Notes under the pieces: generated by a model
Databases searched by the model: none
Told to the model about the DNA's origin: nothing
The model's input: only the letters and a program-made list of their open reading frames with translations
Shown: piece after piece, positions 4,715-61,957 of the stretch
How positions within the stretch are numbered: the stretch's first letter is position 1
How the letters are laid out: the number at the start of each line of letters is the position of its first letter
Assembly: GCF_054482525.1 (NCBI RefSeq)
Contig: NZ_CM137006.1
DNA length: 64,000 bases
Reading direction: 5' to 3' (one strand)
Translations under genes and position numbers: made by a program

Positions 4715-5557
4715 ATGATGCAGCCAGTGATTAACGCGCCGGAAATTGCCACTGCCCGAGAACAGCAGTTGTTTAATGGCAAAAATTTCCATGTGTTTAT
4801 CTATAACAAAACTGAGAGTATCAGCGGACTGCATCAGCACGACTATTATGAATTTACTCTGGTATTAACCGGGCGTTATTTCCAGGAGATTAACGGTAAG
4901 CGCGTGTTACTGGAACGGGGCGATTTTGTTTTTATTCCGTTAGGTTCGCACCATCAAAGTTTTTATGAGTTTGGTGCCACGCGCATATTGAACGTTGGGA
5001 TCAGTAAACGCTTTTTTGAGCAGCATTACCTGCCGTTGTTGCCTTATTGCTTTGTAGCTTCGCAGGTATACCGGACCAATAACGCTTTTCTCACCTATGT
5101 GGAAACAGTGATTTCTTCATTGAATTTCCGCGAAACAGGGCTGGAAGAGTTTGTTGAGATGGTTACTTTTTATGTCATTAACCGTTTACGTCATTACCGC
5201 GAAGAACAGGTGATTGATGATGTACCGCAGTGGCTGAAAAGTACGGTAGAAAAGATGCATGATAAAGAGCAGTTTAGTGAATCGGCGCTGGAGAATATGG
5301 TGACGTTGTCAGCCAAATCACAGGAATATTTGACGCGAGCGACTCAACGATATTATGGCAAAACACCAATGCAGATTATTAATGAGATCCGTATTAATTT
5401 TGCCAAAAAACAACTGGAAATGACCAACTATTCCGTGACGGATATTGCGTTTGAGGCCGGTTATAGTAGCCCGAGTTTGTTTATTAAAACGTTTAAGAAA
5501 TTAACGTCCTTTACGCCTAAGAGCTATCGTAAGAAATTGACTGAATTTAATCAGTAA
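4715..5557 (+). CDS. chbR: AraC-family dual regulator of chb operon
   Basis: 280-aa ORF with C-terminal AraC HTH ([13 protein letters not shown]). Confidence 0.9.
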
Positions 5558-53200: not shown

Positions 53201-53338
53201 CGTGTAATGGCTGCATGAAATAAACAATAAAATATAAATAACATTATCAGCCTGCCGACGGCTTGAAGAGAGTCACAGTATCTTGTGCAACATTATTGGA
53301 AAGCGTGAGGGGCGAGGTAGCGAAGCGGAAAAATGTTA

Positions 53339-53443
53339 AAAAAAAGCCCATCGTGGGAGATGGGCAAAGACTACACACAGCAATTCGTTGTTTCACTCAG
53401 GGGATTTAAGTCATTGATTGATTTATGGGTATGCGGTTTTTCG
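53339..53443 (-). ncRNA. rprA: sRNA RprA (3' ~69 nt canonical, 5' end divergent)
   Basis: Minus strand 53407->53339 reads AAAUCCCCUGAGUGAAACAACGAAUUGCUGUGUGUAGUCUUUGCCCAUCUCCCACGAUGGGCUUUUUUU (rpoS-pairing region plus terminator); the 5' end coordinate is extrapolated from the expected length. Confidence 0.7.
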
Positions 53444-53472
53444 GCATAAACCAAATTAAGCAAGGCTTGAAA

Positions 53473-54054
53473 ATGGACACACAAATTGCACACATATCGC
53501 ACACAAATAAAAAGGGGTATGTATGGCGCAAGCGTTATGAAAAACGCACGATTGAAATCATCCTACGCACCCGTGATAAATCAATTGCCATAAAAAGAGC
53601 GGCATCAATAACAATTCGCTATATGGAATTAAAATCACTTGACGTTCCATTTAAAGCAATGCTGGAAATGTTAAAAAAGTTTCGTGATGGTCTGATTACG
53701 TCACATGACATTGAGCGCTTAAGGTCGATTGCGATAGCTTCACAGGAAGCTCCACACGCCGCTGTAACCGCTTCGCCTATACAAAGTGTTGGCTATGATG
53801 TCAAAACCGCTCAGAAAGCCGCACAGGGGCATTCCCTTGGCGATGCTCAAAAAGTGTACTTTGGCGCCAACACCGAATGGAAAGAAAAAACCATCAAGGC
53901 TTATTCTGGTTGTATCGACCGCTTTATTTTATGGTGCGCTAATAAAAATATTCATACCGTGGAAGAAATAACGAAAGAGCATGTGATTTCATTTAAATCC
54001 AGCATGGATGAAGAAAAATTAGCCTCCATGACTAAATTTCGCATAATAATATGA
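53473..54054 (+). pseudogene. Tyrosine-recombinase (integrase)-like N-terminal fragment; catalytic domain absent
   Basis: ORF ends after a SAM-like core-binding segment (TIKAYSGCIDRFILWCANKNIHTVEEITKEHVISFKSSMDEEKLASMT); no downstream RHRY catalytic domain; start uncertain (53425/53473). Confidence 0.4.
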
Positions 54055-54362
54055 TTCGGGTTAGCATAACCAATACTTTTATTAAAGCCTATGTATGCAC
54101 CAATTTCTTTATACTTTAACTTAGTGAAATCTGAAATAATACTCAGTGGCTGCAATACGTTATGTCCATTGTGCGCCCCTTCATTAGCGCAAAATCCTGT
54201 ATTTGCAAACTGACCTTTATCACGCCAGATGAATCTATCAACGCCGCCACATACAGGACATGGTGTATGTTCATTTGGTTTAATATCAATTCCAAAATCA
54301 TTCATATGCACCAATGGATTCTTTTTAATATAATTATTCAAATCAGTAAAGAAATTAGCCAT
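53952..54362 (-). pseudogene. Primase N-terminal zinc-ribbon fragment (P4-alpha/T7-gp4-type CPxCGG..C), truncated
   Basis: HTPCPVCGGVDRFIWRDKGQFANTGFCANEGAH zinc-ribbon signature; ORF stops after about 135 aa and overlaps the integrase fragment on the opposite strand. Confidence 0.45.
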
Positions 54363-54681
54363 TATATTTGCTCCCGTATCGCCTTGCTGGATGCTTTGCA
54401 AAGAAATCAACGATATCTTGTTTGCGATACCAGATATAACCGTCTAATTCATGATGAATTTCTTGCGGAAATTCTTTAGGGTTAAAGCGTTTGGCGGCAT
54501 AAAACATTGGTTTAGTAACACCAGATAAAGCAATTGCATCATTGCCACACACAAGCCCTGTAAGTTGCACTTTCTGCGATTGTTCTTTTATCTGTGCCGC
54601 GATTAGCCTTTTATTCTCATTAACGTATTTTTCAATCTGTAGCTTACGCATTTTTTCGCGCATGTAATTTATATCGGTCAT
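54355..54681 (-). CDS. AlpA/excisionase-like DNA-binding protein
   Basis: 108-aa ORF; C-terminal segment TKPMFYAAKRFNPKEFPQEIHHELDGYIWYRKQDIVDFF resembles AlpA-family HTH. Confidence 0.5.
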   Translation of the reverse strand: MTDINYMREKMRKLQIEKYVNENKRLIAAQIKEQSQKVQLTGLVCGNDAIALSGVTKPMFYAAKRFNPKEFPQEIHHELDGYIWYRKQDIVDFFAKHPARRYGSKYNG

Positions 54682-56247: not shown

Positions 56248-56400
56248 TTATATAGATGCTTTGTTTTTTTTGTTTTTATCGCAAGTAACTAAATGCTCTT
56301 TTGGAAATTCTTTAGGGTTAAAACGTTTAGCCATATAAAAAGCGGTTGAGCCAATTTTAGCCAAAAGTTGTGCTTCACGAGGTGTAATTAAGTCGCTCAT
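56248..56400 (-). pseudogene. Second, truncated AlpA-like copy (50 codons)
   Basis: MSDLITPREAQLLAKIGSTAFYMAKRFNPKEFPKE...; DNA about 56305-56340 is an imperfect duplicate of 54473-54510; ends in a poly-T/A tract. Confidence 0.35.
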
Positions 56401-56689
56401 GTAGGGTATCTCTTAGATGTATTCTGAGTGCGGTCATGGTAGGCGAGGGGAGGAATAGCGGCAAGCATTACCGGATATAGTAAGCACTACCAGCTAAAGT
56501 CTAACTAACTGTCAACAGATTGAGGCTAAAACCACTGTATGTAAATTCAATTTTAAAAATTAAAAATCATTCTGGCTTAACTAATTATGCTCAATTTAAA
56601 TTGAATCTGATAATAAAAAGAATCAATAAAATGGATTTAGTGATTTTTAGTTGGACGAAATCGTTCATTTTATGTGCATTGCTCGCTGG

Positions 56690-56925
56690 TGATAATTCAA
56701 CCAATCCATTCAACCTATTCGAATGGGTGGTGAATTTTTGACCGAATTAAATTCACCTGAATATTCACCGAATGATTCACCTGAATCATTCAGCCCTTCA
56801 TTCACCACGAAACCCAGGCGCGGCGGGGCTTACAGGCCGATTCATTCACCTGAATATTCACCTGAATATTCACCTGAATTATTCAACCAAAAATTCACCT
56901 TCATATTCACTCATTCACCTCTCTA
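56690..56925. repeat. Iteron array: at least 9 TTCACC hexamers, including tandem palindromic 12-mers ATTCACCTGAAT
   Basis: TTCACC at 56751, 56763, 56775, 56800, 56844, 56856, 56868, 56893, 56913; three exact tandem 12-mers at 56843-56878. Confidence 0.65.
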
Positions 56926-57236
56926 TAAATAAGCATTGGAATGCTTTTTATAGAGGTTGATGAATGAAGGTCGTTCAAGTGAATGAACTGTGAGTTGGGT
57001 AAACCCCTAGGGGTTGGGGGTGTTGTCGATTTGTGGTAAATTCCTTCTGCCAGCGTGAAAAAGGCGCTGGTGGGGATTTGCAGCCCCAAACAAACAAAAC
57101 CATTGGCAAGGAATTGCCGATGCGCGTGCGCACGTCAGTTATGGCGGTCACGGCGAGGGAGTCGAAAGGCTCGCCAGTTTTGTTTGTTTGCTGGTACTGC
57201 AAACCTCGTCGTGATCGTCACCACGGGGATGCATGT

Positions 57237-57488
57237 ATGCAGGAAACAGACTGGCACAAAGCGGATATTCTTGCCTCTTTAAAGAAAAAGAAAATCAGCA
57301 TGGCGGGATTATCCCGTGAACATGGTTTATCAAGTAGCACGTTGCTAAATGCACTTAGTAGAGAATGGCCTAGAGGCGAATTAATTATTGCTAATGCAAT
57401 TGGTGTGTCACCTCAAGAAATATGGCCTTCTAGGTATTTTGAAAAAGATGGCTCTCCAAAAAATCGTGTGATTCGTAAACCTGTTTAA
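57237..57488 (+). CDS. Ner-like DNA-binding protein (Mu Ner / Nlp family)
   Basis: 83 aa MQETDWHKADILASLKKKKISMAGLSREHGLSSSTLLNALSREWPRGELIIANAIGVSPQEIWPSRY matches the Ner family signature; upstream in-frame extension of track ORF judged non-coding. Confidence 0.7.
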   Translation: MQETDWHKADILASLKKKKISMAGLSREHGLSSSTLLNALSREWPRGELIIANAIGVSPQEIWPSRYFEKDGSPKNRVIRKPV

Positions 57489-57705
57489 ATAAGTCAATGC
57501 GTCTCTGATTAAAAGGGGCGCATTTTTGTTTTTACTGACTTGTTGCAATGTGGGATATGTTGCGCACGTGTGTGCGATAGTTGTTAATTGTTTTTTGTAC
57601 TAGTTAACAAATACGAATTTTCTGAGGGTGCTATTTTGGGTTTTAGCTGCGGCTTCGCCTTGCTGCCCTTCGGGCTGGTGGTGCAAGAAGAATGTTTGAA
57701 AACTT

Positions 57706-57751
57706 CCTTTTCTTTGCTTCACCAGCCCCGTAGGGGCGTGAGCGTAGCGAA
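57706..57751 (+). repeat. 46-bp direct repeat, copy 1 (identical to 61912-61957)
   Basis: ccttttctttgcttcaccagccccgtaggggcgtgagcgtagcgaa; contains hairpin GCCCC-GTA-GGGGC. Confidence 0.85.
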
Positions 57752-57849
57752 CCTAATCACTTTGATTTTGACACATATCGGTTCTATCATTTTCAGGAAA
57801 ATCATCATAGAATTATATAAAACATACGATTTTTAAGGTGAATTTTTAA

Positions 57850-59001
57850 ATGCACGAGAAAGCGCAAACAAAAATAAAAGATACTATTAGAGAAATACTA
57901 ATCACTCCAGCAATCGCTTTTACTGGTCGTGCAGGTCATTTTGATTTTTCATTATATGAAGTTTTAGCAAATGAGCTTAACAAAAGAAAGATAAAGTTTA
58001 AAATTGATAAATTATCATGTTGGATTATTTTTGATGGCGCAAAAAAACATTACTTTCAAGATAAATCAATTACTGACGCACAAGCGATAAATGATTTTGT
58101 GGATACGTTATGTAGTATTTACTGTGAAACACCTATGGATTACTCCATCGATTTTCACTTTAGAAATTTAAAAATCGATATCAACCCGATTGATTATGAG
58201 TTTGTTTCAATTAGAGCGGGTGAGGATATTGGTATTGGTTTGTTCGCTGAAAAAGAAAAGTATGCGATTGCGAGCATTAAAAAGAATGGCTATCTTTCAG
58301 GTGGTTATCCTAGCTCATTTATAAAATCGATTTTGCAAGATTTGAAAATCTTCATTTTTTTGATTAAAAGCATTAATTTGATTAAGACAGGAAAAACCAA
58401 TTTAGCATCCACGTTATTTCAATCGATGTCCGGTCATGCTGACACAATTAAGATTGATTGCGTTAATGTTAAATATCCTTGGATGAATAGCAGTGTCCAT
58501 ATTTCAGAGTCGGTAGGGAAATTTTTACACAACTTTATCTTCAATTATGAATTTGAAGAAGGCTACATTATAGAAAAAATAGATCATTCGCTTCAGCTAA
58601 TGAATGCAATAGTAAAAGATGAGTCAAAAGAAGCCTTGCGTATCAAGGCTGCAATTGATTGGTTGGTGCAATCTGAAATCACTGATGATGAAACCATGTC
58701 TTTTATTCAAATTTGCATGGGGCTTGAATCAATTTTTGGTGATGATGATTATGAGGGTGGCCTAACAAACATACTATCTGATAGATGCGCCTACTTAATA
58801 GGGAATAAAATTAAAGAGAGGAGATTTATAAAGGACACATTTAAAAAAATATATCAAGTTAGGTCAAAGATAGTGCATGGCGTAAGAAATCATTTATCAG
58901 ATGATGAATTATATTTTAGGCATTTAGCATATTCATATTTAGAGCGTTCTATTCTAAAAGAAATTCAAAATTTAGACCTGCAATCCCATCAGGCGACGTG
59001 A
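57850..59001 (+). CDS. Hypothetical 383-aa protein with C-terminal HEPN-like R-x4-H-G motif (candidate Abi-type RNase)
   Basis: Long AT-rich ORF with SD aaggtg 11 nt upstream; RSKIVHG at residues 338-344 (nt 58861-58881) in a helical C-terminal domain. Confidence 0.65.
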   Translation: MHEKAQTKIKDTIREILITPAIAFTGRAGHFDFSLYEVLANELNKRKIKFKIDKLSCWIIFDGAKKHYFQDKSITDAQAINDFVDTLCSIYCETPMDYSIDFHFRNLKIDINPIDYEFVSIRAGEDIGIGLFAEKEKYAIASIKKNGYLSGGYPSSFIKSILQDLKIFIFLIKSINLIKTGKTNLASTLFQSMSGHADTIKIDCVNVKYPWMNSSVHISESVGKFLHNFIFNYEFEEGYIIEKIDHSLQLMNAIVKDESKEALRIKAAIDWLVQSEITDDETMSFIQICMGLESIFGDDDYEGGLTNILSDRCAYLIGNKIKERRFIKDTFKKIYQVRSKIVHGVRNHLSDDELYFRHLAYSYLERSILKEIQNLDLQSHQAT

Positions 59002-61911: not shown

Positions 61912-61957
61912 CCTTTTCTTTGCTTCACCAGCCCCGTAGGGGCGTGAGCGTAGCGAA
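61912..61957 (+). repeat. 46-bp direct repeat, copy 2 (identical to 57706-57751)
   Basis: Same 46-mer, 37 bp upstream of the tape-measure-like ORF. Confidence 0.85.

Follow-up and report, generated by a model that had tools for sequence, protein, structure and literature searches.

What is the long, structured leader that precedes a gene for a Ner-like regulator in the 64,000-nucleotide stretch of DNA analysed here (the window)? The first-pass annotation had noticed a 13-bp perfect inverted repeat in this leader and had taken it for part of a structured RNA. The repeat exists, shifted by 1-2 nt from where it had first been placed: AAACAAACAAAAC at 57088-57100 faces its exact complement GTTTTGTTTGTTT at 57177-57189, and the pairing grows to a perfect 14 bp (57087-57100 with 57177-57190), with 76 nt separating the arms. 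No other perfect inverted repeat in the 64-kb window has arms of 13 nt or more separated by no more than 120 nt. In windows simulated with a second-order Markov model, inverted repeats of the same class occur at a mean of 0.13 per window and at least once in 13 of 100 windows, and the rarity of the repeat, taken alone, is modest. The region 57000-57240 has a predicted folding energy of -106.1 kcal/mol (z = -5.4 relative to shuffles). RefSeq annotates no RNA here and nothing between the flanking genes, and neither a tRNA nor a tmRNA was found in the window.

A whole-window Rfam scan identifies the 3′ half of the element. Positions 57137-57225 on the + strand match the C4 antisense RNA family (RF01695) with 65.8 bits, at a threshold of 45; the match is full length (model positions 1-87 of 87) and contains zero non-standard pairs. 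A C4 model that we built ourselves scores the window copy at 89.2 bits. The leader element is an unannotated member of the known C4/CI antisense RNA family, typified by phages P1 and P4, together with a matching upstream a1/b1 site. The coordinates of all features are collected in Table 1.

Table 1. Features of the c4-ner leader and transcription unit (positions in the window).
Feature	Position	Strand	Basis
Putative sigma-70 promoter: -35 TTGGGG (57014-19), extended -10 TGgTAAATT (57034-42)	57014..57042	+	inferred from sequence
Hairpin H1 (GCCAGCGU / GCGCUGGU, loop GAAAAAG)	57049..57071	+	predicted folds; homologues
Hairpin H2 (GGGG/CCCC), loop shows a1 = TTTGCAG (57077-57083)	57072..57087	+	RNAalifold consensus
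b1 site CAAACAAACAAAAC, 5′ arm of the repeat, complement of the C4 loop b′	57087..57100	+	complementarity; homologues
Hairpin H3 (CAUUGGCAA-GGAA-UUGCCGAUG), 9 bp	57101..57122	+	predicted folds; compensatory changes
Spacer before C4, includes GTGCGCAC palindrome (57126-57133)	57123..57142	+	present in sequence
C4-type antisense RNA, predicted mature form, ~80 nt	57143..57222	+	ends inferred from alignment to annotated P1 c4 RNA
C4 helix P1, 17-bp acceptor-like stem	57142-58 / 57204-20	+	RF01695 match, covariation
C4 helix P2, GAAA-capped hairpin	57159-72	+	RF01695 match, covariation
C4 helix P3 (second hairpin), b′ loop at 57177-57190	57173-95	+	RF01695 match, covariation
a′ junction CTGCAAA	57197-57203	+	complement of a1; 3′ junction
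ACCA tail after the long stem	57220-23	+	ACC kept in all members
Shine-Dalgarno GGGGA (57224-28) and Ner-like gene, ATG 57237, stop 57486-88, 83 aa	57224..57488	+	RefSeq has the same start
Intrinsic terminator-like hairpin, 11-bp stem then T-run TTTGTTTTTA	57496..57534	+	terminator scan

The C4 match changes the way in which the repeat has to be read. In the first-pass annotation, the 13-bp repeat was the helix that closes a multi-hairpin element; its 3′ arm is instead the 13-nt loop of the P3 hairpin (b′), inside an RNA whose fold is backed by covariation. A smaller hairpin proposed at the same time, GGCGAG...CTCGCC, falls outside the conserved fold, in which GGCGAGG (57152-58) and CCTCGTC (57204-10) are partners in the long C4 stem, and helix P2 is formed by GAGTC/GGCTC. 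The proposed GGCAA-GGAA-TTGCC hairpin is present at 57105-57118, where it is the core of the 9-bp hairpin H3. The GTGCGCAC palindrome is present as well, but homologues do not conserve it.

The fold was assessed by comparison with homologous loci, most of which are referred to by their L numbers. In E. coli S10 (81% identical), FREC5 and Phytobacter, a Ner-like gene follows C4 directly; the same is true of 12 of the 80 IMG/VR loci that encode Ner relatives and of 9 metagenome contigs. About 13 related modules, all located 5′ of Ner-like (HTH_35) genes, retain the C4 fold with many compensatory changes. In a model-fitted alignment of 14 sequences, including those of P1 and phage ASU11, 98.9% of the cells in the C4 helices are paired and double changes are found in 14 of 27 pairs. 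None of 500 shuffles reaches the observed C4 covariation, and only 32-47% of cells are paired when the partners are slid by 1-3 columns. An independent MAFFT alignment of eight full leaders, analysed with RNAalifold, again gives the C4 fold, along with the hairpin that carries a1. The long-range helix is not recovered by RNAalifold. The alignments demonstrate that positions 57142-57220 correspond to a predicted three-helix C4 RNA. With the full-length family match and the covarying fold, the earlier reading as a structured non-coding RNA holds, and a distinct gene for a small RNA lies within the leader.

The 5′ arm of the repeat lies in the portion of the leader upstream of C4. Here, two hairpins (H1 and H2) are followed directly by b1, with a1 displayed in the second loop. 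a1 is complementary to a′ over 7 nt, and a1 and b1 are situated 75-120 nt upstream of a′/b′ within the same predicted transcript. H1 occupies the position of the first hairpin in IsrK/SeqA/c4-a1b1, and homologues retain it with other stem sequences and with the loop GCAAAAUC, which is identical to the isrK consensus and to P4. H2 shows double changes in five of its eight pairs, and one a1/a′ position covaries, being U-A in 5 sequences and C-G in 3. Leaders of the isrK/c4-a1b1 type have this same layout, even though neither of the Rfam models, isrK (RF01394) or c4-a1b1 (RF03163), matches the window leader at E ≤ 10 in a search of 56400-58000. The pairing of H3 is also kept: L111 has the compensatory pair AGCAA/UUGCU, while S10 and the L018 group have wholly different sequences that still pair. 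H3 is not followed by a U-tract, although IsrK and P4 carry a terminator hairpin at that position, and a terminator scan found no intrinsic terminator between a1/b1 and the Ner gene. H3 and the spacer together are 31% identical to S10, and no conserved role was found for the spacer.

What gives the repeat strong support, on comparative sequence evidence, is that the two arms remain complementary in every homologue although their sequences differ. There are about ten different and unrelated b′ loop sequences across lineages, each with its own matching b1 (the window, S10/L112, L018, L020/L079, L030/L032, L041, L019, L115, L114 and L119). In each case b1 matches the b′ of the same homologue over 7-14 nt at the same position in the leader, with one mismatch in L030. 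The combined score of cognate a1 and b1 in Ner-linked modules is 13-21 nt, relative to a mean of 7-9 nt for non-cognate combinations; L030 scores lower owing to the mismatch in its b1. As a positive control, our site-finding script recovers the annotated a1, b1, a2 and b2 of P1 exactly. Between the window and S10, the segments H1+H2/a1 and P3-stem/a′ are both 100% identical, whereas b1 and b′ are each only 38% identical. A variable b1/b′ within constant flanks is the pattern expected of a specificity determinant. Since the window shares the annotated upstream layout of P1 (a1, b1, and a C4 with b′ and a′), we conclude that the two arms of the inverted repeat are an antisense loop and its own putative target, as are b′ and b1 in phage P1. 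At the level of sequence, the a1/b1 complementarity and covariation, the RNA family and the fold are all established.

The boundaries of the transcription unit can be placed with varying precision. TAAATT (57037-42, preceded by TG) lies six nt 5′ of H1, and a -10-like hexamer is located 5-7 nt before H1 in most lineages inspected by eye (the window group, S10, the L018 group, L019 and L115). In addition, the similarity to L005 starts at TTGTGGTAAATTC, at the -10-like hexamer. On these grounds, transcription probably starts near G57049. A promoter scan made no call at 57014..57042, which is attributable to the weak -35. The protein encoded downstream matches Pfam HTH_35 (E = 5.8e-31) and PHROG 769, a transcriptional repressor family, and its start codon lies 14 nt past the predicted 3′ end of mature C4. 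The terminator that ends the c4-ner transcription unit is conserved in L005 and L006.

Several described systems share parts of this arrangement. The immI operon of P1/P7 (a1 b1 - c4 - a2 b2 - icd - ant) encodes an RNA of the same Rfam family and with the same three-helix fold as that in the window. In both, a hairpin loop presents b′ and the 3′ junction contains a′; the transcript carries first a1, in the loop of a hairpin, and then b1 ahead of the C4 RNA; and ACC comes after the long stem, as it does in RNase P substrates. However, P1 has a2 and then b2 downstream of c4, over the icd ribosome-binding site, for which the window has no equivalent. The genes regulated in P1 are icd-ant, an antirepressor operon, whereas C4 in the window is followed by the HTH_35/Ner-like gene and then a terminator. 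The b1/b′ complementarity is also longer in the window (14 bp, vs. 7-8 in P1), and the host element is a small chromosomal island rather than a plasmid prophage.

The CI RNA of the satellite phage P4 is likewise a member of the C4 family (74.9 bits on RF01695), and the region upstream of it matches isrK with 60.8 bits and c4-a1b1 with 44.1 bits. Both P4 and the island in the window are small and integrative and have integrase and primase/helicase genes; no capsid genes were seen in the window. In P4, CI RNA is part of the replication-operon leader, whereas the module in the window forms a unit of its own, transcribed divergently from the replication genes. The window also has no equivalent of the downstream seqC of P4 (recovered here as 7 + 9 nt) and lacks the terminator that P4 has between a1/b1 and C4. 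Gifsy-1, with IsrK and a downstream C4-like RNA (STnc1160), and lambdoid phages such as ASU11, with tandem isrK and C4 matches, have the same order as the window, namely a1/b1 leader, C4 and regulated gene. H1 and H2 of the window correspond to the IsrK systems in position and loop content, but the window leader matches neither of the two Rfam models and has no IsrK terminator. The IsrK systems regulate orf45-antirepressor, in contrast to the Ner-like gene found here.

Two IMG/VR loci, L036 and L033, also combine this C4 with a relative of the Ner-like gene (56-57% identity), but their C4 is followed by a spacer of 85-130 nt with a2/b2, which the window lacks. The b2 of L036 spans GGAGA, the ribosome-binding site of a Ner protein that is extended by 14 residues at its N-terminus; the a2/b2 of L033 is followed by a leader ORF of 25 codons that overlaps the start of Ner. 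The leaders of both loci give near-threshold isrK and c4-a1b1 matches (40-61 bits for P4, L036 and L033 together). The form in the window looks like a derivative that has lost the a2/b2 spacer segment. It should be noted that a SHSPTFLPF peptide follows a2/b2 in both loci, much as icd does in P1; it is encoded by the separate 25-codon ORF in L033 (1102-1179) and is fused to the Ner N-terminus in L036 (1460-1500).

The second target, a2/b2, has a combined length of 14-19 nt in the systems that have it (7 + 10 nt in ASU11, 7 + 9 in P4, 7 + 12 in L036 and 8 + 6 in L033, in addition to P1). In the compact modules, where C4 ends 12-45 nt ahead of the Ner start codon and to which the window belongs, the best downstream a2/b2 scores are 0-10 nt, no better than those of non-cognate pairs. 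The best downstream score in the window is 10 nt (TGCAG + AAACA at the start codon), which equals the non-cognate maximum. By this comparison, the absence of any a2/b2 above chance level from the compact form is a solid difference from P1, P4, ASU11, L036 and L033. Because no a2/b2 lies over the ribosome-binding site, it should not be assumed that C4 blocks the translation of the next gene.

Other candidate targets were considered and rejected. A possible a2/b2 at the Ner start (TATGCAG at 57236-42 and AAACAGAC at 57244-51) scores at the non-cognate level and shows no covariation in S10, L115, L119 and the L018 group. A search for a two-part target elsewhere in the islands, on either strand, gave nothing clearly above shuffle level; the best hits in the island, of 14-15 nt, fall in the ATPase gene (55533 and 55176) and lack a counterpart in S10. 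When 2.9 million IMG/VR viral contigs were searched for a phage target matching b′/a′ (TTTGCAG, 1-30 nt, AAACAAACAAAAC), only the island itself was recovered as such, the 14 other contigs with the exact pattern all being without a nearby C4; a search of this kind, being exact, may overlook imperfect targets. Finally, a ‘P0’ helix, in which the spacer before C4 would hide the ribosome-binding region of Ner, is not general across lineages: the duplex between the spacer and the Ner ribosome-binding/start region has z-scores of -2 to -3 in S10 (L002 6090-6230) and the L018 group (L018 780-930), and of approximately 0 in the window, L114, L112 and L119.

Related systems suggest what the RNA might do. 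The a1/b1 and a2/b2 scheme of C4 systems has been laid out previously (PMC2864571 Additional file 1), and both C4 and CI are cut by RNase P (PMC5499578). IsrK is a homologue of SeqA, and the action of CI RNA has been described (PMC4825925); the term ‘IsrK-C4 immunity system’ has also been used (PMC3632133). In P4, the upstream site seqA (= a1/b1) is a true target, and pairing with it leads to premature termination (PMC4825925; PMC3632133). In the literature that we searched, no paper ties a C4 RNA to Ner-like genes.

Taking the locus as a whole, the leader is very probably an IsrK/SeqA-plus-C4/CI antisense module, of the kind that confers RNA-based immunity in phages P1/P7 and satellite P4, that would control the Ner-like (HTH_35) gene, with 57049-57236 as the untranslated leader of that gene. 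By analogy, C4 would most likely be cut out by RNase P, pair with the a1/b1 leader and control the expression of the Ner-like protein. The features of an RNase P substrate, a 17-bp acceptor-like stem followed by ACCA, are present in the sequence, and the ACC is found in all members. On the model of P1, P4 and IsrK, transcription would begin near 57049, and RNase P would cut at about G57143 and release a stable ~80-nt C4 RNA with ACC(A) at its 3′ end. Its b′ and a′ would pair with a1/b1 in the leader of transcripts that start at the same promoter, whether in cis while the precursor is still uncut or intermolecularly after the cut. Such pairing would set the amount of full-length c4-ner RNA, and hence of the Ner-like regulator, and the module would constitute an RNA-level immunity or feedback loop whose specificity resides in the b′/b1 sequence. 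Our preferred guess is a route similar to that of P4 seqA, in which pairing at the upstream site would make the c4-ner transcript terminate early or alter the way it is processed.

A more specific version of this proposal is put forward tentatively, with chances that we place somewhat below even. The compact C4 would mask no ribosome-binding site, and its only conserved partner would be the a1/b1 of its own leader. The module would thus be a self-contained RNA-RNA switch that acts through termination, as in P4 seqA, or through its own processing, sets the level of a Cro/Ner-type regulator and defines immunity types among the islands at rprA and ssrA.

The RNA family is a known one; what is unusual is the compact arrangement before a Ner-like gene, without the classical downstream target. 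The modules extend the range of P1/P4-type antisense RNAs to those wired to Ner-like regulators across a family of small integrative elements. One subfamily has apparently lost the classical target at the ribosome-binding site, yet its RNA and the upstream site continue to co-evolve. The compact modules are therefore a clean natural system in which to study the role of the long-puzzling upstream a1/b1 (seqA/IsrK) site alone. Should immunity types indeed be set by the b′/b1 pairs, these pairs could also account for which satellite-like islands are compatible.

The complementarity between b1 and b′ would also allow a purely cis-acting leader switch, in which pairing of b1 with b′ (and of a1 with a′) in one transcript alternates with the C4 fold and controls Ner-like expression without a free small RNA. 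The minimum-energy fold does include the long-range helix. When the cis and C4 folds are each enforced, they differ by at most 1 kcal/mol in the window (-88.8 kcal/mol for cis and -89.8 kcal/mol for C4), L018 and L079, and in L019 the cis fold is the more stable. On the other hand, it is 6-11 kcal/mol worse in S10, L020 and L032, and the structure that is conserved and covaries is the C4 fold, not the cis helix. The covariation of b1 with b′ suits cis and trans pairing equally, but the 13-nt loop cannot be fully paired while its own 5-bp stem stays closed. Precedents exist for both modes. In Gifsy-1, a long-range helix between IsrK and the downstream region, switched by an RNA in trans, has been proven by compensatory mutants (PMC4825925), whereas the homologous C4/CI RNAs are processed and act in trans. 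Neither fold makes the Ner ribosome-binding region consistently more accessible in the predictions. The idea that the cis fold hides this site was rejected, as the accessibility in the cis fold is not consistently below that in the C4 fold and is often higher. We consider the cis switch unlikely, but a serious contender nonetheless, and continue to favour an antisense RNA that is released and pairs with a1/b1.

Another possibility is that C4 or the a1/b1 leader is directed at a different element, such as an ant-operon site or a C4 RNA of a helper phage, in which case the a1/b1 of the island would be a decoy or by-product. Cross-talk between satellite and prophage through IsrK-C4 has been proposed (PMC3632133), an internal a2/b2 is missing from the compact module, and its a′ motif CTGCRAA is shared with the C4 of the lambdoid phage ASU11, which has a full a2/b2 before its antirepressor gene. 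However, the exact search for TTTGCAG-AAACAAACAAAAC described above found no such target in the viral contigs beyond the island and the 14 contigs without a nearby C4, and no close relative of the window C4 was found in the phage collection. An external target is improbable on this evidence, and the leader of the c4-ner transcript itself is retained as the likely partner.

Translation of ORF 57033-57488 as an N-terminal extension of the Ner-like protein, which the first-pass annotation had already argued against, is barely conceivable. The frame is open in the window, FREC5, S10 and L019, and AAGGA-N7-ATG (57108-57122) lies in frame, but stops inside or just past C4 interrupt it in six of ten homologues (L018, L020, L030, L032, L041 and L079). 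Moreover, the changes between the window and S10 in the upstream frame are of the stem-compensating kind, together with indels; homology to Ner/HTH_35 starts at residue 5 of the 83-aa protein; and RefSeq calls the short gene from ATG 57237. A tempting over-long ORF is corrected in this way. As for a chance low-complexity repeat, or a site that acts as DNA (a protein-binding inverted repeat or a cruciform) without RNA function, the arms are indeed of low complexity (A/C-rich and G/T-rich) and simulated windows do contain such repeats at times, but this reading is effectively refuted already by the comparative data, with the complementarity kept in about ten unrelated sequences, always between the C4 loop and the same leader position, and with the arms lying within a covariation-supported RNA family.

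The module belongs to a mobile island of ~11.6 kb that is inserted in the sRNA gene rprA, with a copy of rprA at each end (53336-53456 in the window; 5387-5507 and 17028-17135 in L001). The window is E. coli DNA, and the region is 100% identical to that in strains PCN033, SCU-102 and 19KM1776 and occurs in only 5 of 5426 complete genomes; the C4 RNA adds an unannotated regulatory RNA gene to this rare E. coli island. In addition to the c4-ner unit, the island encodes an integrase fragment, a primase zinc-finger fragment, a helicase-primase-like ATPase, a HEPN protein, small ORFs and a tape-measure-like protein. The integrase, within 53425-54410, is a 209-aa N-terminal fragment that is overlapped by the primase zinc-finger fragment, and in the S10 relative the integrase and a toprim gene are intact. 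The island copy in the window is probably decayed and immobile. As it looks decayed, with only a fragment of the integrase, the module may lack current selection in this strain. The same module adjoins RprA in Phytobacter massiliensis, and in more distant relatives the C4-Ner module is located ~750 nt from partial tmRNA or tRNA matches.

Several other repeats were observed in the island. Dense direct and inverted repeats of TTCACC(TGAAT), in more than 10 copies at 56695-56920, separate the leftward replication genes from the c4 promoter and resemble iterons or operators. A 46-nt repeat, CCTTTTCTTTGCTTCACCAGCCCCGTAGGGGCGTGAGCGTAGCGAA, is found at 57706-57751 and 61912-61957, ahead of the HEPN gene and the tape-measure-like gene, and its first copy lies inside a larger hairpin (57672-86 / 57714-28). 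A similar palindrome, CCCCTAGGGG, is located at 57004-57013, just 5′ of the c4 promoter, and these elements may represent a shared regulatory site. A 44-nt repeat with 84% identity occurs at 54461-54504 and 56297-56340 in two small leftward ORFs of 108 aa and 50 aa, which have the motif AKRFNPKEFP in common and encode paralogous small proteins. The other Rfam matches in the window, at 24684-24808, 28504-28662 and 755-797, are the Phe leader, STnc540 and ES036, respectively, which are ordinary chromosomal RNAs of E. coli.
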